Shown piece by piece: positions 2,960 to 42,702 of a stretch of DNA of 64,000 nucleotides. The notes beneath the pieces were generated by a model. The model was not told the DNA's origin. It did not search any database and was given only the letters and a program-made list of their open reading frames with translations. This stretch comes from Armatimonadota bacterium (GTDB lineage: Bacteria; Armatimonadota; Fervidibacteria; Fervidibacterales; Fervidibacteraceae). The stretch lies in the NCBI GenBank assembly GCA_032160945.1, contig JAVHTL010000003.1; one strand, given 5' to 3'. Position 1 is the first letter of the stretch. The number at the start of each line of letters is the position of its first letter. A program made the position numbers and the translations under genes.

Positions 2960-5551
2960 CTAATCCAGCAAACGCACTATCACTTTTCCGATTGCGACTT
3001 TCGTGCTCCCTTTAGACTGCGACCAGCGGCGCGGTGAAATGACAACGGCACCCCGCTCAATTGCCGGAACTCCGTTGAAGTTTTCGTCAGCGACGGAGAA
3101 CAATTGTTTGCCGTCAAGCCATGCAGTTATTCGGTTACCCTCAACGCGGACGGTAACTTCGTGCCATTCGTTGTCGGGCGTCCATTTAGCCAATGCAAGT
3201 GGATTGTCATCGCCAGTGCTGACACCGTTTCGTGCTTTATGCAAATGAATTACACCGCCTTGACCGTGATAGAAGTTGAGAGAGTAAGCGTTATTGACAT
3301 CCGTCCACCTGAAGCCGAGCCAAAAACCGTCGCGCCAATCGCTGCCGAACTCCAAAACTCGGAAACGCACGGTGACCTCATAGTTGCGCCACCAGTCAAA
3401 TCCAATTTTGCTACCCAATGCAATAAAGCCATCTGTTCCGCCATCAGCGCCGTAGTAAATTCCACCTTGTATTTTCCACTCGCCGATCAAAGGCATCCAT
3501 GTGGGGCGCCCGTCACTTCCGTCGGGGTAAAGCGAAAAATCATCGTCATAAGGGTTGCCGGCGAAAGTCACTCTCGCAAATCGGTCAGGTTCGTGAAACC
3601 AAACGACGCATTTTGACCATGAGAGCAAAAGCGGGTCATCCTCTTTGCCTTTGGGTCTGTCAATGCGATAAAGGTTGAGGCGCCAAGAGAGACCGGGACG
3701 CGGAGCGAGGGACTGAGGATGGGCAATCACTGACAACGGGATCGCCATCTCAACAGTCCAACCTTCATCTTTGTCGTCTCGCTTGTTCACAGTCCCGCGA
3801 ACTTTAACTGCGCTCAACCAGCCTTGACAGTTCCATTCAGCGTTCTTCTTGCCGTGCTTGACACCTTCAACGGCGTCGGGAATGAGCAAGTCAATTTCCG
3901 TGCCCAACGGGTTGACTTGAAACTCGTAATAGTTTAAGCCGTCGCCATCGGGATCAATGAACGCCTCAACGACTTCCTCTTCCCAAAGGAAATCGTCCCG
4001 CTGCGTTTTCGTCGCCCAAATGTCATCGTCGGAGCACTCAAAGGCAATGTAAAGGTAACGGTCATCCCAAAGCAGGCGAGCGAATGTCTTTGGGGCACTG
4101 CGACCTTTGATGTCCTTCAGTTCAAGTGGTTCAGCCATTTGCCATTCAGGCTCGTCCAAAACCCCATCAATCCGCAACGGATTTTGGGTTCGGTAGACAA
4201 CAGTGTGAGCGATTGGCGGTCGCTCTTGAACGGTTTGGGCAATCCATCGCAATAAATCTGTCAAGAGTGGCAATTTCGCTTCTGTTTGCCAAAGAGTGTG
4301 CCAAACATAAACAAGTCGCCCCGCAGCGAAATCACCAGTCCGGTATTCCAAAACCGCAGCACCATCACCGTATTCGTTGCCCCTATCGTCACGCAAAGTC
4401 AAAATCGGCGTGTAAACGAAGTCAACACCTTCAACACCTTTCGGCTTGACAATAGGTCGCCACCGCAAGTCGCCTTCTGTAGGGAACGGGATGGTTTCGG
4501 GCAGATTAGGGACAATGTTCTGATTTGGGTTGCGATGGAAGGTCAACTTAATGCCCTGCGGCGGTTTCTCCCAACCGCCACGAACGGGGAGACCAAAGGC
4601 TTCCGCATTGCCGACAGGTTTGCCAGATTGGTCGTAGAAGAACGGGAAAGGTTGCGACGCGAAAACGAGCAAAATCCCACCATCACGCAAAAATTTGCGA
4701 ACCGCTTCAATGGCGTCGTTTTGTCTTCCAACCGTGTAGTAAAACCGCTCGCCCGAAAGATAGAAAGCGACGGGAAAGCGCTGGGCAGTGAAGAAGTTTT
4801 CGTCAACAAGTTGCGACGGCGAAAGCAAAATCCAATGTTCCGTCAAACCTGCTTTGCTCAAGAGCGAAAACAACGGATGACTTTGAGCGGAGTCAGGTGG
4901 CGGGACTGGCAAAGCAGCGACGCGACCTTTCAATGGTGATAAAACCTCCCGTAACTCACGCAGTTGGGCAACAATTTTCTGCTCTTCCTGCCATTGTTCA
5001 CGCCTGCGGTTCAGCAAAGTCAATGTCTCTCTCAATTCGTCTTCGCTATGCATGCTTAAAGTCAATGCAAACAAATCTGCGCCCTCAACCCGAATCGCCT
5101 TTACAACTCGTCCCTCGTCTCGCGTCCCTCGTCCCGTCCGTATCACTGCCATGTCAAGGTGCCAATTGTAAAGCGGCGGGTGAGCAGTGATGACTGGGAC
5201 TGCGTCGGCAAGCGAAAATTTTTGCTCGCTTCCGTCGGTAAAGCGCAGGATTAGGAGAGCATCGGGTTGTGGATTTGCGATCAGCGCAAAAACGAAATTG
5301 GCGCGGGCGTTGACGGGGACATCGGTATCGCGGACGATTGCTTTGCCATTGTTCAAAACTGGGTCAATGATTACGAACGGGATGCCCAAAACCCATCGCT
5401 TGCCGGGAATCAAACCCGCAAACGATTTCGGGTCATCCCAATTGGCATAAAGTGTGCGGTTGCAATGTGGAGCCAAATTGACGATGAAAAATTTTTCGCT
5501 GTTTACACTCAACAACATCGCGAAAACCATCCACCAAACCATCGCTATCAC
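2960..5551 (-). CDS. Secreted multidomain carbohydrate-binding protein (GATase/ThuA-like + CBM9-like + DUF1080-like)
   Basis: Signal peptide. FLRDGGILLV segment, IDGVLDEPEW..A/RLLWDDRYLYIAF/EVVEAFIDP/YYEFQVNPLG (CBM9-like), and WHEVTVRVEGNRITAWLDGK (DUF1080/ConA-like). Confidence 0.7.
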   Translation of the reverse strand: MIAMVWWMVFAMLLSVNSEKFFIVNLAPHCNRTLYANWDDPKSFAGLIPGKRWVLGIPFVIIDPVLNNGKAIVRDTDVPVNARANFVFALIANPQPDALLILRFTDGSEQKFSLADAVPVITAHPPLYNWHLDMAVIRTGRGTRDEGRVVKAIRVEGADLFALTLSMHSEDELRETLTLLNRRREQWQEEQKIVAQLRELREVLSPLKGRVAALPVPPPDSAQSHPLFSLLSKAGLTEHWILLSPSQLVDENFFTAQRFPVAFYLSGERFYYTVGRQNDAIEAVRKFLRDGGILLVFASQPFPFFYDQSGKPVGNAEAFGLPVRGGWEKPPQGIKLTFHRNPNQNIVPNLPETIPFPTEGDLRWRPIVKPKGVEGVDFVYTPILTLRDDRGNEYGDGAAVLEYRTGDFAAGRLVYVWHTLWQTEAKLPLLTDLLRWIAQTVQERPPIAHTVVYRTQNPLRIDGVLDEPEWQMAEPLELKDIKGRSAPKTFARLLWDDRYLYIAFECSDDDIWATKTQRDDFLWEEEVVEAFIDPDGDGLNYYEFQVNPLGTEIDLLIPDAVEGVKHGKKNAEWNCQGWLSAVKVRGTVNKRDDKDEGWTVEMAIPLSVIAHPQSLAPRPGLSWRLNLYRIDRPKGKEDDPLLLSWSKCVVWFHEPDRFARVTFAGNPYDDDFSLYPDGSDGRPTWMPLIGEWKIQGGIYYGADGGTDGFIALGSKIGFDWWRNYEVTVRFRVLEFGSDWRDGFWLGFRWTDVNNAYSLNFYHGQGGVIHLHKARNGVSTGDDNPLALAKWTPDNEWHEVTVRVEGNRITAWLDGKQLFSVADENFNGVPAIERGAVVISPRRWSQSKGSTKVAIGKVIVRLLD
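3694..3721 (+). repeat. Intragenic degenerate heptamer run
   Basis: CGGGACG CGGAGCG AGGGACT GAGGATG, encoding HPQSLAPRPG in the 863-aa protein. Confidence 0.5.
5108..5135 (-). repeat. Intragenic heptamer run (GGGACGA family)
   Basis: TCGTCCC TCGTCTC GCGTCCC TCGTCCC, encoding GRGTRDEGR. Confidence 0.75.
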
Positions 5552-5596: not shown

Positions 5597-5933
5597 CCGA
5601 ATAAATTCGGCACTCATTTGCTCCGTCTGCGACTGCTGGCTAAAGCCAATGGCATGAATGATGTTCGTTGAGCGTTGCGAGTTGAGTGTTGTGCGTTGAG
5701 CGTTAACAAAACAAACCATGCTACAGACTTTAGCCCGTGTTCGGTGATAAACTCGGAAGGGCAAGCCTCTGGCTTGCTAAAATTTTTCCGCAGGGGCGAA
5801 TGAAATCCTTAGTAATTTTCGGGCAGGTTTCACCTGCCCCTACAAATTTTTGGGTCGGGCAGTAGCCCGACCTTCCGAATGCTTTAGTCGGCAAGGTAAA
5901 TTTTCATCGGCATGGTTTAAAACCGTGCCCTAC
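5597..5933. repeat. Intergenic mosaic of REP-like palindromes and a heptamer run
   Basis: CCGAATAAATTCGG 5597-5610; six CGTTGAG-like heptamers 5666-5707; GCAAGCC-TCT-GGCTTGC 5761-5777; GTAG REP 5821-5844; GGTCGGGC-AGTA-GCCCGACC 5853-5872; GTAG REP 5908-5933. Confidence 0.75.
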
Positions 5934-5934
5934 T

Positions 5935-6759
5935 TTAACCGCGCAATTCAATGAGCACGACGATGCCGATCGCTGACAAAGTTGCAAGCACCAAAATAGA
6001 GCGCCCGATTGGGTTAAGTGCAGCGAGCAAAGCGATCCATAAACTCACTATCGGGAACGAAATGACGAAGGCGATTGTGGCTCTCTTCATGGCTGTTCTA
6101 TCGCTCGCTGCTGCGAGCAAGTAAACCCAAATCGGGGCGCTCAATTCGTAACCGCAAGATTGACATTGCACAGCGAACAATGAAACGGGCGATTTGCATT
6201 GGGGGCAAAACTTTCCCTTTGTTTCCGCTTCGCTTTTCAATTGTTTTGCTCGCACTAACTTTCGCCGTTCCGTTGCATCGGTCGGAGCGAGTTGAACTGC
6301 CCGCTCGTAGCACGCAATTGCGTCATCGTATCGCTTCGCTTCCAAGTAAAGGTCTCCCAGTGCGCTCCAAGCGGCTGCATTTTTGGGGTCTCGTTCAATT
6401 GCTGCTCTGTATCGTGCTTCTTCCTCTTGCTGAATTTGCTTGACTAAACTTTTTTCTGCTGCAAATTGAGCCATCGCCCACAAAGCAACCAAACCTGCAG
6501 CGGCAAGGAACAGAGCGAAAACCAGCGGACTGTTCCAAAGGGAAACCACACCGATGAGCAAACCGGCAACGAAAAGCAAACCCATTGCAGCGTGACTTCC
6601 CGAAAGTTCGCCTTCAACGATTCGCCCAACTATTGCAGCACCCACAATTGACACAACCAAAATCAGAGCAGCGAGCCTAATACCAGCCTCAAATGCTGCC
6701 GCAAAGGCTCCAAACATCTGTCTCATCCCTCCCGAACCGAAAAGGTTTTCGCTGTGCAA
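5935..6759 (-). CDS. Membrane protein with TPR and double zinc ribbon
   Basis: AIERDPKNAAAWSALGDLY...YDDAIACYERAVQLAP (TPR); CPQC..CQSC zinc ribbon; TM helices at both ends. Confidence 0.8.
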   Translation of the reverse strand: MHSENLFGSGGMRQMFGAFAAAFEAGIRLAALILVVSIVGAAIVGRIVEGELSGSHAAMGLLFVAGLLIGVVSLWNSPLVFALFLAAAGLVALWAMAQFAAEKSLVKQIQQEEEARYRAAIERDPKNAAAWSALGDLYLEAKRYDDAIACYERAVQLAPTDATERRKLVRAKQLKSEAETKGKFCPQCKSPVSLFAVQCQSCGYELSAPIWVYLLAAASDRTAMKRATIAFVISFPIVSLWIALLAALNPIGRSILVLATLSAIGIVVLIELRG

Positions 6760-6869: not shown

Positions 6870-8585
6870 GTGCGCACAAGTTGGTGTTGGTTGTTGGTTT
6901 GTGCTTTGTTTGGGAAAGTTTTCGGTCAAGTTGGGTTCAGTGCAAAAACGCCTATCGGAGGCTGGATTCAATCTTCAGGCAACTCAAGCGACTTGACACT
7001 TACTCTCGGCGCCGCAGGCAAAAGCGTCTGGCAGCCTTTTGATGTTGAGCGGTGGTTCAACTGGTTGGAAGAGAGCAATGGTGTTTCAGGAGCACTTTTT
7101 TTGGCGAAATGGTGGCTCTCAGAAAATTGGAGCGAGGCAAAAACTTATTCATTGCCATCATTCTCTGTTTTCCTTAGACCCCGTGAAATGGCTGCAAGGG
7201 GAACTGGTGATAGGGCAACTTGGGAGCATTTGAGTTCGGCAACATTCAGTTACCACCCGACACAGCGATGGGGAGTTTTGGTTCAGTTGCGACACAGAGA
7301 TTTTTTGCCCTTGATTGATGCCTACCCTATGCCAACCATTGAAGTTGCGACAGTTCGTGGCTTCATCGGCACGACAGTTTGGGAGTTTGGGCGAAACTAC
7401 TACCGATGGGGCGTGGGTTTCCTTGGGACGCCTTTGATTTCCGATCACGGTTATCCCCTTGACGGGATTTCTTTCAGCCTTCAAGCGAAATTGCCCATCA
7501 TCGGTCGTTGGAGAATTAGGCAACTTGCTGGCTATTTGCACGGCGACTTGCCAGGGAGGTTTCTCGTCGCTCGTCGTTGGGAACGAAATTTCGGCAGCCG
7601 TTTATCTCTCGGAGCGACAGAGATTAGCCTGTCTCGCTCCTTTTACCCTTTGGTCCTTTTCCTACCCATTTACCCGACTACTCGTTTGGCTGTCCTTAGC
7701 GGTTGGCGAGGCGAAAACAGCGACCAAGTGATTTTTAACTTGGACTTCACTTACCGAACCAGTGGGCTTGACATCTATGGTGCATGGGTCGCTGACGATT
7801 TGAAGTTGCGTTGGTGGCGCAAGGAAGAACGAATTCAGCGAAAACTCGGTTGGATTTTCGGAGTCCAAAGGGAAGAGAAGGAATGGGCTTTAGGTGCTGA
7901 ATATGCTTCCTTTGACCGACTGACATACACTCACAGCGTCCAACCACCTCACATCTATCAGGGCGTTGGATTGGGTTACCCGACTGGTGCAGACTCAAGA
8001 AGCGTTGCCTTTTGGGGTCGGTGGAAATTTATGCCGAAGTTGCAACTGAGTGGAATTTTGACGAGAGTTTGGCTTGATAGAAAGACTCAAAACAGAGACA
8101 ATGAGCGACACTGGGCTTTAAGTTTGCAATGGATTGCCTCACAAAACGCTCTTCTCGCCTTGCACTGGACTCAAGGCTACCCGCCAAAGTGGGGAGTTGG
8201 TGGTGGTTGGTCGGAAACTCAAGAGCGGACGAGGTTTTTGATTTTGGAAGGTCGCTTCTTTGGGTTGTGGTCACAGAAAGAAGAAAAAGCAGAAGAGAAA
8301 GCAAAAGAAATCCCTGCTCAGGAAACGCAACCTGAAACTAAGGTTGAAGGAGAATTCGCGCTGTTGACATCCCTGAGTGGAAGAAAAGGCACGATTTCGG
8401 CTGGAAGCCGTCAAGGAATCAAAGTCGGAATGAAATTGCCTATTGCTGACTTCGCAACGGGCAATTTGCTCGGCTACTTTATCGTGACACAAGTCAGACA
8501 AGATGAAGCGAGCGGGCAAGTGGAAAGTTTGCCTAACAGAATCGTGCCAGTGGGTTCAAAAGTGATTTTAAGCCAAAAGCGATAA
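6870..8585 (+). CDS. Capsule assembly Wzi-like outer-membrane barrel fused to an FlgT-C-like domain
   Basis: Signal peptide, aromatic beta-strands, FGRNYYRWGVG...LISDHGYPLDG and TYTH...GVGLGYPTGADS (Wzi-like), C-terminal ISAGSRQGIKVGMKL. Confidence 0.6.
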   Translation: MRTSWCWLLVCALFGKVFGQVGFSAKTPIGGWIQSSGNSSDLTLTLGAAGKSVWQPFDVERWFNWLEESNGVSGALFLAKWWLSENWSEAKTYSLPSFSVFLRPREMAARGTGDRATWEHLSSATFSYHPTQRWGVLVQLRHRDFLPLIDAYPMPTIEVATVRGFIGTTVWEFGRNYYRWGVGFLGTPLISDHGYPLDGISFSLQAKLPIIGRWRIRQLAGYLHGDLPGRFLVARRWERNFGSRLSLGATEISLSRSFYPLVLFLPIYPTTRLAVLSGWRGENSDQVIFNLDFTYRTSGLDIYGAWVADDLKLRWWRKEERIQRKLGWIFGVQREEKEWALGAEYASFDRLTYTHSVQPPHIYQGVGLGYPTGADSRSVAFWGRWKFMPKLQLSGILTRVWLDRKTQNRDNERHWALSLQWIASQNALLALHWTQGYPPKWGVGGGWSETQERTRFLILEGRFFGLWSQKEEKAEEKAKEIPAQETQPETKVEGEFALLTSLSGRKGTISAGSRQGIKVGMKLPIADFATGNLLGYFIVTQVRQDEASGQVESLPNRIVPVGSKVILSQKR

Positions 8586-8630
8586 TGACATTAACGCCAA
8601 AGCAAAATTGAACAAGCCAATTTTGTGCTC

Positions 8631-9647
8631 TTACTTCTTCGCAACAGCCTTGACCTCTTGAATAATTTCCTTTGCTTCGTCGCCTTCGTTGATGTTTTCG
8701 TGGGTGCCTTCAACGACATCGCAGACGGAATTAGTGTCATTGACAATCAAAACTCGGATTTTAGCGATGGGAGGTAGCGAAACTAACTCGCCGCCAACTT
8801 TCCTGACTGGATAAATGGCGAACTGATTTCCTTTCTGCACTCCGTCCAAACGACCGACATTGATGACGATGTAAGTCGCAGTAACACCTTCAAACTTTCC
8901 CAAGACTTTGCCTCTAATTGGTTCTCGCTCTGCAAGTTTGAGTTTGAGCAAGTTGCTTAAGTGTCCTATCGCCGCTTTGATGGCATTCATGTCCCGTTGA
9001 CGCTGGTTGTCACGACCGAAAAGAATCCCGCCGAAAGGTGTTCCAGCGATTGCAAAAGTTTCGTCTTTATCAGTGGCGAAACTGACGAGTTGAGCAGTGG
9101 TTGTCAAAGAGGTGTTGTCAATGATTTCCAGAAACACCAACGCACCTGACTCGTTTTTTCTCAGGTAGAAACCGCCGATGTCAATTCGGTTTCTCCAAAG
9201 TTGACCCAGTAACAATCCGAGTTGCTTTGCTGAGCGAACCAAATGGACAGTTGCTTTCAATTCAACATTCTCACGCAAAATCCTCCCTTTGGGAGGCAAC
9301 GAACCTTTGTGGACTTCTTCCGACTCCCTCTCAAACTGTCGCTCCTCTGCTTCTCTTCGGACTTCCTGAGTGCTTGCGACAATGGTGAAACCTGCTTCTG
9401 TTAATGCTGCCTTGAGTAAAGGCTCAACGAAAGCGCGAAGGGATGGTTCAGGATAGTTTTCAACGAAGACGGTTACCTCACGCAACAAAATCCTTGCACC
9501 TTGAGGGATGCCGAGTTTGACAGAGGCATTGGCTTCAACGATCGCCTTTGGCACAGATTGAACTTTTGAATTTTGGGCAACTGAAACCCCAATGAACCAA
9601 ACAACCAGCGATAGCGAAAGAACTAACCATTGACGCATGTCAATCAC
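8631..9647 (-). CDS. Secreted CsgG/FlgT-like protein with FlgT-C-like domain
   Basis: Signal peptide, alpha/beta core, C-terminal YIVINVGRLDGVQKGNQFAIY...IAKIRVLIV. Confidence 0.55.
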   Translation of the reverse strand: MIDMRQWLVLSLSLVVWFIGVSVAQNSKVQSVPKAIVEANASVKLGIPQGARILLREVTVFVENYPEPSLRAFVEPLLKAALTEAGFTIVASTQEVRREAEERQFERESEEVHKGSLPPKGRILRENVELKATVHLVRSAKQLGLLLGQLWRNRIDIGGFYLRKNESGALVFLEIIDNTSLTTTAQLVSFATDKDETFAIAGTPFGGILFGRDNQRQRDMNAIKAAIGHLSNLLKLKLAEREPIRGKVLGKFEGVTATYIVINVGRLDGVQKGNQFAIYPVRKVGGELVSLPPIAKIRVLIVNDTNSVCDVVEGTHENINEGDEAKEIIQEVKAVAKK

Positions 9648-10757: not shown

Positions 10758-10810
10758 GCCGCATAATTTTTACATGGCTCATTCAAATTTGCTATCGGAG
10801 GTGATTTCCG

Positions 10811-24391: not shown

Positions 24392-24493
24392 AGTCAATTG
24401 CCCTCATACAAGTTTTTCGTGTATAGACAGGCAAAATTCGCCTGCAAATATTTCGGGCTAACGCTCTTTACTACGAACTTTGTTGGTGACTTA

Positions 24494-24600
24494 TGTAGGG
24501 CGGGGCTTCCATGCCCAGCCGACAAATTTTGTGGGGCAGGACAGAACATGCGCCTTACATGTCGGCACGGGACAGAGCCCGTGCCCTAAATGGCGACAAT
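24494..24600. repeat. Cluster of three REP-like elements related to the 30.5-kb array units
   Basis: TGTAGGGCGGGGCTTCCATGCCCAGCCGAC (24494-24523), inverted TGTAAGGCGCATGTTCTGTCCTGCCCC (24533-24560), GGGACAGAGCCCGTGCCCTAAATGGCGAC (24569-24597). Confidence 0.8.
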
Positions 24601-24642
24601 TTTTTGAATTGGTATTAGTGAAGAAGCCGAAGGTGGTTAAGG

Positions 24643-24864
24643 TCAAGAGGTGGGGGATAAAGGTTTTGTGTGTTGGGTTTGAGAGAAAGAAGAGGGATGG
24701 ACAAATCCATTTTCATCAACTTTCCTTCTTGACAGCCTTCTCCTTTCGTAATCTGGATAGGCTTCTCTAAGAACAGCCATAAGTTCATCAAATTCTTGAA
24801 GAGAAATTCCAGTAAGGCGACGAAAGAGGTTAGGGGACTTTTTGGCTTTTTCTAAGTTGAGCAT
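24643..24864 (-). pseudogene. Truncated transposase N-terminus (IS5-like/DDE_Tnp_4-associated HTH)
   Basis: MLNLEKAKKSPNLFRRLTGISLQEFDELMAVLREAYPDYERRRLSRR resembles the start of these transposases. Similarity then stops and no DDE domain follows. Confidence 0.7.
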
Positions 24865-28559: not shown

Positions 28560-29606
28560 ATGAAAGCAGCCTTGTTTCTCGGTCTGGAGAGGATGGAAGT
28601 CAGAGAAGTTAAAACACCTTCTGTGAGGAATTCGTGGGAAATGCTTGTGCGTGTAAGGGCGTGCGCTATATGCGGTTCTGATGTGCGGATATTTCATCAT
28701 GGCAATCCGAGGGTTCGTCCGCCAGCAATATTAGGGCACGAAATAGCCGGTGAAGTCGTGGAAGTGGGCGATGCAATAACGCAATTTAAAGTTGGCGACA
28801 GGGTCGCAATAGGCGCAGATGTGCCGTGCGGAATTTGCGAGATGTGCAAACGAGGTCTCGGAAACAATTGCCCAATTAACTATGCTATCGGGTATCAGTT
28901 TCCGGGCGGCTTTGCTGAATTCATACTGCTCAACGAGACAACGGTGAAGTATGGTCCAGTGCATCCCATACCAGATGGAGTCAGCGATATTGAAGCGACC
29001 CTTGCAGAACCACTTGGGTGCTGCTTGAACGCATATGAACTTGCAAATCTTTCGCCGGGTGAGACAGTGGTCGTCTTTGGTCTTGGTCCAATTGGCTGCT
29101 TGCTTGTTGAGTTGGCAAAAGTTCTTGGCGCCGGCAAGGTGATAGCGATACAGCGTTCCAAGAGGCGGCTTCAAATGGCAATTGAGATGGGCATACCCGC
29201 TGATGTGTTTGTGTGCTCCCAAGAGGAAGACCCAGTTGAAAGGGTGCTCAAGGAGACCGATGGCAAAGGTGCGGATGTAATACTGACTGCGTGTGGAGAT
29301 GTGGAGGCACAAGAGCAGGCAGTAAAGATGGTGGCTCATCGTGGTAGAGTGAACTTGTTTGCTGGGTTGCCAGCAGGGACAAGGAAGATAGAAGTTGACT
29401 CAAACTTCATCCACTACAGGGAGGCATTTATCTTCGGCTCACATGGTAGTGTTCCAAGGCACCATAAATCGGCGTTGCAGTTGCTCTCTGGTGGCAGAAT
29501 AAAAGCGGAGCGTTATTTCACTCACAGGTTTTCCCTTGACGATATACTTGAAGCGATCAAAACGGTTGAAAATAGAGAAGCGATGAAGGTGGTGATATGC
29601 CCGTGA
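28560..29606 (+). CDS. Zn-dependent alcohol/polyol dehydrogenase
   Basis: CAICGSD, ILGHEIAG, CGICEMC..GLGNNC, LAEPLGC, GLGPIG, VNLFAGLP. Confidence 0.9.
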   Translation: MKAALFLGLERMEVREVKTPSVRNSWEMLVRVRACAICGSDVRIFHHGNPRVRPPAILGHEIAGEVVEVGDAITQFKVGDRVAIGADVPCGICEMCKRGLGNNCPINYAIGYQFPGGFAEFILLNETTVKYGPVHPIPDGVSDIEATLAEPLGCCLNAYELANLSPGETVVVFGLGPIGCLLVELAKVLGAGKVIAIQRSKRRLQMAIEMGIPADVFVCSQEEDPVERVLKETDGKGADVILTACGDVEAQEQAVKMVAHRGRVNLFAGLPAGTRKIEVDSNFIHYREAFIFGSHGSVPRHHKSALQLLSGGRIKAERYFTHRFSLDDILEAIKTVENREAMKVVICP

Positions 29607-30316
29607 GCGTGACAGTAAAGTTATTTGCTTCAATGATGTGTGCCAACTGGTGCAACCTTGAGCGAGACGTCCGTGAACTTGAGTCGGCTGGGATTGATGG
29701 CTTGCACTTTGACATCATGGACGGGCACTTCGTTCCGAACCTAACGATGGGCTTTGATGTGGTTAGATCGCTTCGCCAAATCACTCAACTCCCTTTTGAT
29801 GTCCACTTGATGATTGAAAAGCCTGAGCGCTACATTGACAGGTTTGCCCAAATAGGAGTTCAATTCATCTCCGTCCACTTTGAGAGCACACCACATGTGC
29901 ACCGAGCGATTAAGCAGGTCAAAGATGCCGGCGTGTCAGCGATTGTAGCCATCAACCCAGCAACACCGCCATGCGCAATTGATTACCTGCTTGATGATGT
30001 TGACGGGGTGCTCGTGATGACCGTCAACCCTGGCTTCTCAGGGCAAGCAGCCATACCGGCTGCTGTTAGGAAGATTGCCGATGTTAAGGAGCGAATTGAG
30101 CAGCGTGGAAGCAATGCCTTCATACAAGTTGATGGCAATGTAAGTTTTGAGTTGGCTCCGACGATGATAAGATATGGGGCAAACATACTCGTAGGAGGCA
30201 CATCAAGCATCTTCTCAAAAGAGTCAAGCCTGAGCGAGAACATTAGAAGGTTTCGCAGTCTCATAGTGAATGTCATTGATGAGAAAGGAAGTGGGATTTT
30301 GAAAGTAACCCCTTAG
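29597..30316 (+). CDS. rpe: Ribulose-phosphate 3-epimerase family (Rpe/AlsE-like)
   Basis: LHFDIMDGHFVPNLTMG, DVHLMIEKPE, AINPATP, VMTVNPGFSGQ, IQVDGN, VGGTSSIF. Confidence 0.92.
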   Translation: MPVSVTVKLFASMMCANWCNLERDVRELESAGIDGLHFDIMDGHFVPNLTMGFDVVRSLRQITQLPFDVHLMIEKPERYIDRFAQIGVQFISVHFESTPHVHRAIKQVKDAGVSAIVAINPATPPCAIDYLLDDVDGVLVMTVNPGFSGQAAIPAAVRKIADVKERIEQRGSNAFIQVDGNVSFELAPTMIRYGANILVGGTSSIFSKESSLSENIRRFRSLIVNVIDEKGSGILKVTP

Positions 30317-30487
30317 TTGCTCAAAGATTTGGCGACGAGCATCGGCAGAGACATCGGCTCGCACCATCACCCCAATGACAGAACGCAAACTCCATCGCAA
30401 TTTCCCTTTGTCAAGGGAGTCAAAGAGCGCCAATATGCCCCTTGATATGTTGCCTGCCCAAAAATGCACCAACGCCAGTTCCTTGAA

Positions 30488-31114
30488 AGGGCGGGGCTTC
30501 CGTGCCCCGCTGACTTTCTAAATTTCGTCGGCAGGGGACAGAGCCCCTGCCCTATATCGGCGACGAAAAAAATCGTCAGATGTAGGGCGCATGCTCCGTC
30601 ATGCGCCGACGAAAAAAATCGTCATGGGACAGAGCCCCTGCCCTACATCGGCGACGAAAAAAAAAAATCGTCAGATGTAGGGCGCATGCTCCGTCATGCG
30701 CCGACGAAAAAAAAAATCGTCATGGGACAGAGCCCCTGCCCTACATTGGCGACGAAAAAAATCGTCAGATGTAGGGCGCATGCTCCGTCATGCGCCGACG
30801 AAAAAAAATCGTCATGGGACAGAGCCCCTGCCCTACATTGGCGACGAAAAAAATCGTCAGATGTAGGGCGCATGCTCCGTCATGCGCCGACGAAAAAAAA
30901 TCGTCATGGGACAGAGCCCCTGCCCTACATCGGCGACGAAAAAAATCGTCAGATGTAGGGCGCATGCTCCGTCATGCGCCGACGAAAAAAAAATCGTCAT
31001 GGGACAGAGCCCCTGCCCTACATTGGCGACGAAAAAAAATCGTCAGATGTAGGGCGCATGCTCCGTCATGCGCCGACGAAAAAAATCGTCATGGGACAGA
31101 GCCCCTGCCCTACA
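30488..31114. repeat. BIME-like tandem array: 6 units (91-98 bp) of alternately oriented GTAG REPs with GACGA-An-TCGTC linkers
   Basis: Unit starts at 30535, 30626, 30724, 30816, 30908, 31001, plus a final partial unit at 31093. Constant part is 77 bp; A-tracts are 7,7,11,10,7,8,7,8,7,9,8,7. A lead REP lies at 30488-30514. Confidence 0.95.
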
Positions 31115-31258
31115 AAGCCCACCAATAACCTTTTGAGTAAAGAGCGATGCTTTATCATGTTGTGAGGCTAAAAGTCTAAGCCAAAATTACTCAACGCAGG
31201 AAGTGGTGAACCAATCTAAACCGAGCATCAACTGGTGGTTACGGTAATCAATTCCATA

Positions 31259-31393
31259 TAGGACTTACGCAGTTGATGTCATTTTGTGTAGGGGCAGACG
31301 ATAGTCTGCCCGAAAACATCCTTTATAAAGGGGTTAAAACTGCCCTTGCGGGCGGCTTAGCAGCCGCCCTTACATCCAACTGCGTAACTCTCA
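31259..31393 (+). mobile_element. MITE copy 1 (TIR GGACTTACGCAGTTG) enclosing two inward-facing GTAG REPs
   Basis: TAGGACTTACGCAGTTG...CAACTGCGTAACTC(TCA). Near-identical to 42574-42702 and 56049-56182; the right end is slightly degenerate. Confidence 0.85.
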
Positions 31394-31423: not shown

Positions 31424-33667
31424 TCATTCACTGGCGCCTCTTCTCATTTTCTGCTCAGAGTCAAATCGCTCCACGATCGTTCTGGCAACTTGATGGACAT
31501 AACCCGATGGGTCGTTCAATGCTTTTTTGATGGCATCCAACGCAGGTTTTACCTTTTCGCCCAAATGCCTCATTGCGTTGATGGCGTAAAGGCGAACGAA
31601 TTCGTGTTCGTGGCTGAGCAATTTCGTCAAAGCCGCCAAACCATCATCCCATCCCCAATCGCAAATTGCTTGGGCTGCTGCGATTTGAACAGTTGGCGAC
31701 GAATCGTTGAGCATTGCCCGCAAAGTTTCCACGAACTTCTCTCGCTTCGTTTCGTCTTTACATGCATGGTGGATGCTAACAATTGCCCAATAGCGAACTG
31801 CGGGATGCTCATCCTTTAACGCTTGCAAATAAGCGGGAAGTGCCTTCTCACCTTGTCCATCCAGCATCTTGAGTTGCAGCAACCTTTCCAAAACCCCGCT
31901 TCGGTCAATTTCCGTGCGCCAATCGGGAATTGGTTCTGGTTTTCCATCTGCCGAAGGTAATGGTTCGCCAAATTGCCATCTAACTTCGTCGCTGTCATGG
32001 CAACCCAGCCTGCAAGCCTTAGCAATCAAGGTTTCTCCATTTTGCACCGTCACAGGTTGCGTGTAAAGTTGCCAAAGACCTCGCTTGCCGTCGGCATCAA
32101 TGCGGTAGGCAATAGAAGCACCTTCCGTTTCGCATTCCAGAACAATGGTTGTAGCATTATCGGCTCGCTCAACGATTTGCAATTTCGGCGATGCCGTCTT
32201 TTGCCATCTGCCATTCGGTCGCATCATTTCCGTCAACTCAGGTTCGGGGACAAGTCCGACATCGCCGATTTTCTTCATCCATTTGAGAAGTTCTGCTCGC
32301 ATCGCTTCAAGCACAGAACGATATTGCGGGTCATCAGCGAGGTTGCGAGTTTCATGTGGGTCGGATTGAGTGTCATAAAGTTCCTCAACGGGTTTGGTTG
32401 GAATGAAGAAAAAGCGTTGAACTTCGTTGAGTTTCCCTTCAGCGTTGAGCCGTCGCCACTCTTGCATTGTCGGCGTCTCCTCGCCATATCCAACCTCTTG
32501 AGCGTAAGGCAAATGCGATGCAAAGTTGCGGATGTATTTGAACCGCTTGTCACGAACGGCGCGAATGATGTCGTAAGTTTCGTCCATGCGGTCACGGGCA
32601 GCATAAACGAATTTGCGTGGCGGTGATTTTTGCTGTCCAAGAAATGCTTGACCTTGTATGTGCTTTGGGATGGGAACGCCAGCAAGCGAAAGCATCGTCG
32701 GAGCGAAATCAACGAAGGCAATCAAATCCTCAATGACGCTGCCGGGCTTGATGCGGTCGGGGTCATCAGGATATGCCCACTTTCGGAACTTTTCGGGGAT
32801 GCGGATGATGAGCGGGACGCGGATGCCGGAATCGTAAACCCACCGCTTGCCTCTTGGTATTCCAGCACCGTGATCTGACCAGAACCAAACAATGGTTTTT
32901 TCTGCCAAGCCATCCTCTTCCAACTCGCGCAAAATTTCGCCAGCACGAATGTCCATAAGCGTGACAGTGTCATAATGCTGTGCAATATCACGGCGAACGG
33001 CAAGTGTGTCAGGCAAGTATGGTGGCACAGGTGCTTTCGCAGGGTCATGGCGTGCTTTAGATGGCAACGCTTCAATTCGCTTCAAAAGGTTTGGGTCTCG
33101 GCTTCTGAGTTGGCTTTCGTGAGTGACAGTGATGTTGAAAACGGCAAAGAAAGGTTGTTTTAAGTCGGGACGGTTGCGCCAATGTGCTTTTGGACTGCTT
33201 TCATCCCATGCCGTCAATGGCGCTGCTTCAGCACTTGCCGTTGAAATTTTCGGGTCGTGAGCGAAGTTGTAGTCGGTTTTTGCATTGTTGGTGCAGTAGT
33301 ATCCTGCAGAGCGCAAGTATTCAGTGAAGCAGCGAACGAAAGGTGGTGGGACGGCTTTGCAGCGCATATTGTGAGTTCCGATGCTCGTCGGATACATTCC
33401 TGTGATGACGCCTGAACGAGATGGTGCGCAAACGGGTGAGTGAGTGAAAACATTCGTGAACCTAACACCTTCGGCTGCTAACCTGTCAAGGTTAGGCGTG
33501 AACGCATACGGGTCACCAAAACAGCCCAAAGTTGGACCCATATCCTCACAAGTGATCCAAAGGAAGTTAGGTCGCTCAGGATTTTGCATTAAAGTTTCCA
33601 CCTCCAATCCCAAACTTCTGACAAGCACTAAGCCAATTATGTTGCCAACAAACTCCCTTCGCTTCAA
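31424..33667 (-). CDS. Sulfatase with C-terminal small beta-domain and HEAT repeats
   Basis: PNFLWITCEDMG, CAPSRSGVITGMYP (CxPxR formylglycine motif), FWSDHG, ELYDTQSDPHETRNLA, HEAT-like VRYWAI/VRLYAINAM; N-terminal KRREF resembles a Tat motif. Confidence 0.92.
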   Translation of the reverse strand: MKRREFVGNIIGLVLVRSLGLEVETLMQNPERPNFLWITCEDMGPTLGCFGDPYAFTPNLDRLAAEGVRFTNVFTHSPVCAPSRSGVITGMYPTSIGTHNMRCKAVPPPFVRCFTEYLRSAGYYCTNNAKTDYNFAHDPKISTASAEAAPLTAWDESSPKAHWRNRPDLKQPFFAVFNITVTHESQLRSRDPNLLKRIEALPSKARHDPAKAPVPPYLPDTLAVRRDIAQHYDTVTLMDIRAGEILRELEEDGLAEKTIVWFWSDHGAGIPRGKRWVYDSGIRVPLIIRIPEKFRKWAYPDDPDRIKPGSVIEDLIAFVDFAPTMLSLAGVPIPKHIQGQAFLGQQKSPPRKFVYAARDRMDETYDIIRAVRDKRFKYIRNFASHLPYAQEVGYGEETPTMQEWRRLNAEGKLNEVQRFFFIPTKPVEELYDTQSDPHETRNLADDPQYRSVLEAMRAELLKWMKKIGDVGLVPEPELTEMMRPNGRWQKTASPKLQIVERADNATTIVLECETEGASIAYRIDADGKRGLWQLYTQPVTVQNGETLIAKACRLGCHDSDEVRWQFGEPLPSADGKPEPIPDWRTEIDRSGVLERLLQLKMLDGQGEKALPAYLQALKDEHPAVRYWAIVSIHHACKDETKREKFVETLRAMLNDSSPTVQIAAAQAICDWGWDDGLAALTKLLSHEHEFVRLYAINAMRHLGEKVKPALDAIKKALNDPSGYVHQVARTIVERFDSEQKMRRGASE

Positions 33668-42573: not shown

Positions 42574-42702
42574 TAGGACTTACGCAGTTGATGTCATTTT
42601 GTGTAGGGGCGGACGATAGTCTGCCCGAAAACATCCTTGGGGTTAAAACTGCCCTTGCGGGCGGCTTAACAGCCACCCCTACATCCAACTGCGTAACTCC
42701 TA
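42574..42702 (+). mobile_element. MITE copy 2 (129 bp)
   Basis: TA-GGACTTACGCAGTTG ... CAACTGCGTAACTCC-TA with two internal GTAG REPs. Confidence 0.9.

Follow-up and report, generated by a model that had tools for sequence, protein, structure and literature searches.

Organization of the locus

The window, by which we mean the whole 64-kb stretch of DNA analyzed here, contains a tandem array between two convergent genes, 3′ of both rpe and a gene for a sulfatase with HEAT repeats (Table 1). Tandem Repeats Finder (TRF) returned one strong tandem array (30528–31114; period 92 nt, 6.3 copies, 95% matches, score 1046), to which it also fitted a double-unit period of 186 nt. Dissection of positions 30486–31113 resolved 14 GTAG-type REP hairpins, which form a resident REP doublet and, after it, six units of 91, 98, 92, 92, 93, and 92 nt, in that order. 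Both approaches agree with the original prediction of six near-perfect 91–98-bp units with oppositely oriented GTAG REPs.

Each unit has the layout ATYGGC-GACG-A(n)-TCGTC-AGAT, REP1 (plus strand), GACG-A(n)-TCGTC, and REP2′ (minus strand). The first unit starts directly 3′ of the CCCTAY of the resident right REP. All six copies of REP1 and all six of REP2′ begin with GTAGGGC. REP2′ differs from the resident REP2 by two substitutions and has an imperfect stem, and the resident copy brings the minus-strand REP2-type elements to seven. REP1 and REP2′ alternate in orientation six times, with a linker at both kinds of junction, which is the architecture of a BIME. Once the A-runs are masked, the six units vary at two sites only, CTA(T/C), in unit 1, and AT(C/T)GG; between units 3 and 4 the identity is 100%. 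This bears out the claim that the units differ by A-tract length and a few substitutions. Across the twelve GACG-A(n)-TCGTC linkers, n is 7, 7, 11, 10, 7, 8, 7, 8, 7, 9, 8, and 7. Two GACGA-A(7–11)-TCGTC mini-hairpins had been predicted in each unit; the linkers are indeed present with n of 7–11, but that notation counts one A twice (a trivial matter) and the hairpins themselves are marginal (see below).

The left REP of the resident doublet is degenerate. It reads AAAGGGC...GCTGAC, its GTAG having decayed to AAAG. The right REP (REP2) has a perfect 8-bp stem, a CTCTGT loop, the canonical GTCGGC tail, and an ATAG head. These features can be compared with the canonical dispersed doublet of the lineage, whose left half comprises the flank GCTCTTTAC...TTGTTGGTGACTTAT, a TTCCAY-loop left REP, and the spacer TTTCCAAATTTC, and whose right half comprises an inverted CTCTGT-loop right REP and the flank AAAGCCCACCAA...GTAAAGAGC. 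The array ends with exactly this canonical right flank, which indicates that the locus is a resident doublet with six extra units inserted or adjoined. The flank is 70% complementary to 50339–50399 and also follows doublets in contigs L084, L108, and L081.

Table 1. Coordinates of the array, its components, and related features (window positions unless a contig is named)
Feature	Position	Strand	Remarks
rpe, ribulose-phosphate 3-epimerase, upstream flanking gene	29597-30316	+	Pfam PF00834, E=2e-67; 3′ end toward array
Degenerate left REP of resident doublet, AAAGGGCGGGGCTTCCGTGCCCCGCTGAC	30486-30514	+	89% identity to REPs at 24497 and 50374
Canonical 12-nt spacer between untagged ends of resident doublet, TTTCTAAATTTC	30515-30526		Spacer type as TTTCCAAATTTC of dispersed doublets in related contigs
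Resident right REP (REP2)	30527-30555	-	One mismatch to frame
Six tandem units	30556-30646, 30647-30744, 30745-30836, 30837-30928, 30929-31021, 31022-31113		TRF and unit dissection
REP1, GTAGGGCGCATGCTCCGTCATGCGCCGAC, six exact copies	30582-30610, 30677-30705, 30771-30799, 30863-30891, 30955-30983, 31049-31077	+	
REP2′, GTAGGGCAGGGGCTCTGTCCCATGACGAT, six copies	30618-30646, 30716-30744, 30808-30836, 30900-30928, 30993-31021, 31085-31113	-	Two mismatches to frame
Right flank of resident doublet, AAAGCCCACCAATAACCTTTTGAGTAAAGAGC	31114-31145		Inverted counterpart of canonical left flank
Neighboring 135-nt REP doublet, second class	31255-31390		GTAGGGG heads, 17-nt terminal inverted repeats; outside array, same intergenic region
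Sulfatase with HEAT repeats, downstream flanking gene	31424-33667	-	Pfam PF00884, E=5e-35, and HEAT_2; 3′ end toward array
RAYT of the host genome	L102, 8642-9193		Motifs HIHLLV and YILENP; NF047646, 92.8 bits (cut-off 80); PF01797, E=1.7e-10

A second type of element occupies the same intergenic region. This 135-nt doublet of the GTAGGGG class has further copies in the window at 42574–42702 and 56049–56186, and its summed contig depth is ∼500 times that of the flanks.

Two other kinds of repeat were considered and ruled out. A coding repeat is excluded by unit lengths that are not divisible by three, and the open reading frames that cross the array are artifacts because no frame is stable over such units. 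A CRISPR-like array is excluded by the lack of unique spacers. BLAST revealed no similarity of the array to plasmids or phages.

A conserved REP hairpin

The REPs of the array share a 29-nt frame, GTAGGGC-stem-loop-stem-GCCGAC, in which the stem has 8 bp and the loop 6 nt, and so have the size and stem-loop form of REPs. The frame GTAGGGC-N5-YTCYRY-N5-GCCGAC has 16 matches in the window at ≤2 mismatches, compared to 0.00 expected (100 shuffles). This is far beyond chance and confirms the observation. The hairpin was probed by covariation in a set of 100 distinct REPs that had been gathered without any stem constraint. Over the five variable stem pairs, 153 double-change cells were counted, as against 63 ± 6 in shuffled sets; none of 500 shuffles attained this count, and the scores of all slid registers fell far below it. 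The REP hairpin is therefore a conserved structure, its stem maintained by compensatory changes in many genomes, and not merely a conserved sequence.

The distribution of these elements was surveyed in 468 kb of host-like DNA. The sample contains 201 GTAGGG-headed hairpins, a density that is biased upward since the sample was picked by REP content, and the class is thus dispersed. CTCTGT-loop REPs account for 42 copies in the same sample, and 31-mers of REP2 occur at 13–21 times flank depth. Within the 468 kb, neither the REP1 variant nor the GACG-A(n)-TCGTC linker occurred outside the array. Of the two REPs whose genome-wide count had been proposed as a check, the class as a whole is thus abundant, but REP1 is confined to the array in this sample, and the unit is not demonstrably mobile. 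The idea that the array was amplified from a doublet like the one at 24494 stands in part. That doublet exists (24495/24561) and the resident element is of its type, but the REP1 and linkers of the unit have no counterpart elsewhere in the 468 kb.

Beyond the host-like contigs, and with one genome taken per species, the frame recurs often in several Verrucomicrobiota MAGs and in one Armatimonadota MAG among the matches listed. The REPs of the Armatimonadota MAG have the same loops as those of the array, again among the matches listed. About a fifth of the single frame matches listed in this one-genome-per-species search are stemless chance matches. A search of JGI metagenomes for the frame in its TTCCAY-loop version gave 70 loci, mostly from two metagenomes. 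Contigs from these two have a window-like G+C content and carry the 135-nt element, and one of them matches window positions 24493–24691 at 98.5%, which together place their source in the host species or a close relative of it. The contigs that bear the array locus come from hot-spring metagenomes.

Variation in unit number and A-runs between populations

Unit number was judged from contigs and k-mer depth; the figure of six comes from the window assembly together with depth, not from reads. Eight of nine independent contigs for the locus stop inside the array. The sole spanning contig (L001) comprises two units, whose A-runs measure 8, 8, 8, and 9 nt, and its CTAT variant lies in a different unit than in the window. 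A further contig (L003) has at least 2.5 units, and its A-runs are different again. By exact k-mer matching, the depth of the REP1 core relative to the flank was 3.0-fold in run X1, 3.1-fold in X11, and 4.3–5.6-fold in X5. The linker with ten adenines was found exactly in X5, at 1-fold flank depth, and in X25. No run contained more than 52% of the sampled 31-mers of the array.

Some of these data could indicate an assembly artifact in the unit number and in part of the A-run lengths, with only two or three units at the true locus. The breaks in eight of the nine contigs, the two units of the only contig that spans, the modest (∼3-fold) REP1-core depth in X1 and X11, and the incomplete recovery of array 31-mers in every run would all fit this reading, as would a short-read origin for the window, which may be such an assembly. 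We consider it unlikely. The REP1-core depth in X5 is 4.3–5.6-fold, the ten-adenine linker is matched exactly both there at flank depth and in X25, short-read assemblers usually collapse rather than inflate arrays of this kind, and the differences between samples fit real polymorphism. We conclude that the unit number truly differs among populations, from about two to six, and six units are plausible for the source of the window.

On the evidence of contigs and depth, the array thus has the strain-variable unit number of a BIME. The variation in both unit number and A-run length identifies the locus as dynamic. The poly-A tracts were described at the outset as hypervariable, and they do vary both within the array and between assemblies. 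Nor are these properties peculiar to the locus. Tandem REP arrays occur elsewhere in the lineage as well (periods of 33, 51, 112, and 167 nt), and A-run indels are polymorphic beside the RAYT of the host genome (see below), so the REP population is generally prone to local amplification and A-run slippage. Such arrays break short-read assemblies, and unit numbers in MAGs are therefore not to be trusted without long reads. Unit number and A-run lengths are a possible strain marker for hot-spring metagenomes.

The A-runs could in principle form a contingency locus that switches a neighboring gene by phase variation, and their range of 7–11 within and between populations is what draws attention to this idea. 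The array lies 3′ of both neighboring genes, however, which makes such a switch unlikely; it also contains no promoter-like site, and the frames that run over it are unstable with units whose lengths are not multiples of three. We regard phase variation as highly improbable.

Folding and transcription of the array

The array folds far more strongly than shuffled sequences (z = −8.6 as DNA, plus strand; z = −13.0 as RNA, minus strand). As RNA at 37°C, REP1 has a predicted folding energy of −14.7 kcal/mol. DNA-parameter folds at 75–85°C were implausible, an extrapolation artifact, and the high-temperature values given here derive from RNA parameters only. With these, the predicted energies at 75°C are −4.0 kcal/mol for REP1, −6.7 kcal/mol for the resident REP2, and −1.8 kcal/mol for REP2′. 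A palindrome that pairs two GTAG heads is predicted at −10.0 kcal/mol under the same conditions. The 5-bp “mini-hairpins” are predicted to be unfolded at 75°C (RNA parameters). These marginal hairpins are better understood as stubs of two REP tails that are complementary to each other and have an A-rich linker between them, and complementary stubs with an A-rich linker are also a trait of the RAYT-flanking doublets of the lineage.

An RNA contig from metatranscriptome run X15 extends from inside rpe through the first REP to position 30547, which suggests that transcription probably reaches the array. Metatranscriptomes may include DNA. RNA contigs are unreadable inside repeats, and the fate of a transcript within the array is not visible from them. 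Both neighboring transcripts probably enter the array, which may thus affect mRNA 3′ ends as a side effect. The array contains no site that resembles an intrinsic terminator or a promoter and has no match to an Rfam family down to E = 1.

These properties raise the question of whether the array is kept as a structured RNA or DNA element, which might act as a bidirectional barrier to read-through, protect mRNA 3′ ends, or be a site for a nucleoid or topology protein. Its position 3′ of both genes, the strength of its folding relative to shuffles, the REP1 hairpin and GTAG-in palindrome that are still predicted to form at 75°C, and the RNA contig that passes from rpe into the first REPs are all compatible with such a role, and roles of this kind for enterobacterial BIMEs are reviewed in PMC3733652. 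The RNA contig nevertheless runs past the first hairpin and comes from a type of library that can hold DNA, the array has neither a terminator-like site nor an Rfam match, and a unit number that ranges from about two to six among populations speaks against fine tuning for a function. That selection maintains the array as an RNA or DNA structure is conceivable but unsupported, and we consider it doubtful.

RAYT genes in the lineage and in the host genome

RAYTs are HUH/Y1 enzymes that act on single-stranded DNA. The 64-kb window contains no RAYT, as judged by a search of six frames with an HUH...Y..NP pattern and by an HMM built from 99 RAYT homologues and run with filters off. The only HMM match in the window (at 10805, E = 0.029) was rejected as a 25-residue chance match.

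RAYTs are associated with REPs of the array's frame in related genomes, and these REPs often form tandem arrays of alternating orientation joined by A-rich linkers. In a Verrucomicrobia MAG (L049), a RAYT whose homologues are named RayT by JGI and NCBI is bracketed by such REPs, and the RAYT of a second locus (L112) is flanked by them as well. A RAYT represented by contigs L148 and L149 is flanked by an alternating array with a period of 83 nt and GCCGAC-AAAAAATT-CGGC linkers; its source is a hot-spring metagenome and MAG study that also yielded host contigs. The frame REPs at L152 are joined by the linker GCCGAC-GAAAAA-GTCGGC. At L158 and L159, the RAYT-flanking REPs combine the REP2 stem of the array with the CTCCGT loop of REP1. 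The RAYTs of these loci and that of contig L102 form one subfamily of ∼180-residue proteins with 45–72% identity among members. When L148/L149 and other RAYT loci with the array's REP class were compared with host-like contigs by BLAST, only REP-sized matches were obtained and no link to the host genome emerged.

The RAYT on contig L102 has the HUH and catalytic tyrosine motifs and scores above the family cut-off (Table 1). Its best match in the PDB is E. coli TnpA-REP (4ER8, E = 2e-7), and its closest named relative, at 72% identity, is from an Armatimonadetes MAG. Together with the shared REP loops of the Armatimonadota MAG noted above, this makes the host probably a member of the Armatimonadota. 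The depth ratio of the gene that flanks it to the window flanks was a constant 1.10 in three independent runs, from which we infer that this RAYT belongs to the host genome. The RAYT itself is present at about flank (single-copy) depth in X1 and X3 and is absent from the contigs of X11. On either side of the gene lie doublet arrays whose REPs belong to the sister GTAGGGG class and whose A-rich linkers vary in length, and the stop codon of the gene falls inside the GTAG of the downstream REP.

The REPs that border the host RAYT are thus of the GTAGGGG class, as opposed to the GTAGGGC...GCCGAC class of the array. Neither the 64-kb window nor the host-like contigs yielded a host RAYT of the array's own REP class. 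The original suggestion that the array could be a RAYT substrate is therefore supported at the level of the lineage, by the frame-REP-flanked RAYTs of relatives and by a host RAYT with the sister class. A RAYT flanked by the array's REPs, which had been proposed as a check, has counterparts in relatives at frame-matched loci, but the host enzyme has the sister class and the window encodes none.

Origin and growth of the array

The array was proposed to be a BIME-like array of REPs, and the two GTAG hairpin types, their alternating orientation, the linkers, the tandem arrangement, and the position between convergent genes all agree with that description. We consider the array very probably to be a BIME-like cluster of GTAG-type REPs that forms part of the REP/RAYT system of a hot-spring bacterium. 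A RAYT would bind a GTAG-footed hairpin on single-stranded DNA and cut and rejoin the DNA at an inverted REP (CC/TAC, where the slash marks the cut) or at a linker. Cleavage and strand transfer of this kind may have made the first unit and possibly later ones. Once two units were present, their number could have changed through unequal recombination of the 92-nt repeats or through slippage in replication, and polymerase slippage could have altered the A-runs. There is precedent for the enzymatic steps in E. coli, where TnpA-REP cleaves at C/T in inverted REPs and linkers and builds tandem BIMEs by strand transfer in vitro (PMC3333891).

A serious rival for the amplification step is plain slippage without a RAYT. 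On this reading, replication slippage or unequal homologous recombination between neighboring REPs suffices for growth, and the REPs matter only as a substrate prone to misalignment. The identity of units 3 and 4 and the 186-nt double period found by TRF are what unequal exchange would give. Arrays in the lineage have many periods and phases (33, 51, 83, 92, 112, and 167 nt), which looks unspecific, no RAYT of the array's REP class was found for the host genome, and variation in A-runs is the classic outcome of polymerase slippage. Homology alone has more difficulty with the first duplication, because the joint needed there is not accounted for by simple homology. Moreover, the densest alternating arrays directly adjoin RAYT genes, and the E. 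coli enzyme assembles tandem BIMEs in vitro (PMC3333891). For every step after the first duplication, the two explanations overlap. The data here do not separate RAYT-mediated amplification from plain slippage or recombination; we hold growth by the latter alone to be a substantial possibility, somewhat short of an even chance.

A much stronger role for a RAYT can also be envisaged, in which the array is an active hotspot of amplification. A thermostable RAYT would add 92-nt units singly at the CC/TAC of the resident inverted REP by rejoining a copied or excised unit. Since the 3′ end of each unit restores the target, the array would be self-extending, and the A-runs would record slippage or inexact joining in every round. 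When the phase is set to start right after CCCTAC, the end of each unit recreates a CCCTAC site, and this fits repeated addition at the inverted-REP site. It is no proof of such addition, since a tandem repeat can be read in any phase. The presence of the RAYT and the number of units both vary among coexisting hot-spring strains. If the reading were true, the locus would be a natural system in which to see RAYT-driven BIME amplification in vivo; we know of no organism for which this has been shown. We think it unlikely and regard the array chiefly as a by-product of REP dynamics.

Relation to known REP systems

To our knowledge, REP and BIME clusters and RAYTs have been studied almost only in Proteobacteria. 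In the strict sense, enterobacterial BIMEs are marked by Y and Z REPs, S and L linkers, and the binding of IHF or gyrase. The array shares with enterobacterial BIMEs (BIME-2, TnpA-REP/RayT) the alternation of REP types, the linkers, the tandem reiteration at one locus, and GTAG at the 5′ foot of the hairpin. The parallel extends to variation between strains and to gene context: BIME-2 arrays vary in copy number and linkers from strain to strain, and the RAYT gene is bordered by such arrays (PMC3333891). The differences are in sequence and host. On inspection, the REPs and linkers of the array are unlike the Y and Z REPs and the S, L, l, and r linkers of E. coli, and we therefore describe the array as BIME-like, rather than as a BIME in the strict sense. 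It uses one linker, GACG-A(n)-TCGTC, at both kinds of junction. The E. coli enzyme requires a stem mismatch, whereas the stem of REP1 is perfect. The host, finally, is a hot-spring bacterium outside the Proteobacteria.

Pseudomonas REPINs, REP doublets that form hairpins and are mobilized by Group 2/3 RAYTs, are a second point of comparison. The dispersed element of the lineage described here is likewise an inverted-REP doublet with a short spacer, conserved flanks, and many copies, accompanied by RAYTs at about single-copy depth, and this canonical doublet is dispersed as a unit, as a REPIN is. The 92-nt unit of the array is not, since it was found at this one locus only; this points to local amplification and not to a replicating REPIN population. 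The RAYTs also differ from those of Pseudomonas REPIN systems in belonging to a distinct subfamily.

A third comparison is with the clusters of the GTAG REP superfamily (Di Nocera et al., 2013), which include those of Opitutus terrae (Verrucomicrobia). Like the array, these have GTAG hairpins with 6–9-bp stems, occur as tandem dimers, and are enriched between convergent genes; the 29-nt frame of the array is, in addition, shared with many Verrucomicrobiota MAGs among the matches listed. The same source (PMC3733652) describes 24 GTAG REP families, and tandem REP dimers, the occurrence of GTAG REPs in several phyla (Verrucomicrobia among them), convergent-gene enrichment, and REP-flanked RAYTs are all already on record there. 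Armatimonadota is not among the phyla named for GTAG repeats in the passages of PMC3733652 consulted (Proteobacteria, Cyanobacteria, Chloroflexi, and the PVC superphylum), and our literature search for a link between REPs and Armatimonadota found none. Alternating GTAG arrays, array-bordered RAYTs, and strain-variable copy number in a hot-spring lineage, probably one of the Armatimonadota, with a frame held in common with Verrucomicrobiota, widen the known range of such systems. They also make thermostable RAYT/REP pairs available for biochemistry.

Other REPs and Repeats of the Window and the Host Lineage

GTAGGGG-headed REPs, the sister class to those of the six-unit array, also occur within a 135-nt element of the window. 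The element is bounded by terminal inverted repeats of 17 nt (TAGGAGTTACGCAGTTG) and encloses two GTAGGGG-headed hairpins that are inverted with respect to each other. Its summed contig depth was ~500 times that of the DNA flanking the array in three runs, which suggests that there are hundreds of copies of the element per genome.

REPs of the GTAGGGG class, arranged as doublet arrays, also lie on either side of a REP-associated tyrosine transposase (RAYT) gene on contig L102 of the host genome. In runs X1 and X3, the depth of this gene was that of a single-copy sequence; the contigs of run X11 lack it. It therefore appears to be polymorphic among strains. At four loci that are unrelated to one another, the RAYT gene overlaps the REP downstream of it: the GTAG of this REP contains the gene's TAG stop codon.

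Next to a CGTTGAG tandem repeat, the window has two REPs that belong to other classes. The first has a GTAGGGGCAGG head, like the REPs beside the L102 RAYT gene, and the second has GTAGGGCACGG as its head and TTTTAAA as its loop, like those beside the gene for P0134, another RAYT. Within the 24495/24561 doublet, the stretch that separates the two arms contains a degenerate third REP (− strand, GTAAGGCGCATGTTCTGTCCTGCCCC). Because the arms of this middle REP each match a different REP type, it looks like a recombinant.

Positions of the repeats and RAYT features
Feature	Location	Remarks
135-nt element, copy 1	window 31255-31390	
135-nt element, copy 2	window 42574-42702	
135-nt element, copy 3	window 56049-56186	inverted
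RAYT gene	L102 8642-9193	flanks 8370-8640 and 9190-9440
RAYT stop/GTAG overlap	L049 2379-2382	
RAYT stop/GTAG overlap	L102 9190-9193	
RAYT stop/GTAG overlap	L152 about 3165	
RAYT stop/GTAG overlap	L158 about 553	
CGTTGAG repeat and two REPs	window 5666-5704 and 5838-5960	CGTTGAG x5.6
24495/24561 doublet	window 24495-24591	
Tandem REP array	L081 10690-10900	period 33 nt
Tandem REP array	L108 6500-6720	period 51 nt
Tandem REP array	L116 1360-1900	period 167 nt
Tandem REP array	L128 3000-3211	period 112 nt
GGGACGN runs	window 5095-5136, 50994-51035, 52157-52188, 52923-52945, 53591-53619	both orientations

Further tandem REP arrays were found in the host lineage, some of them with a single REP orientation throughout. 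The G/C-rich heptamer runs (GGGACGN) of the window lie within a pair of large − strand ORFs (2960-5551 and 50400-54602), encode the peptide GRGTRD(E/G)GR in two cases, and may represent an intragenic repeat.
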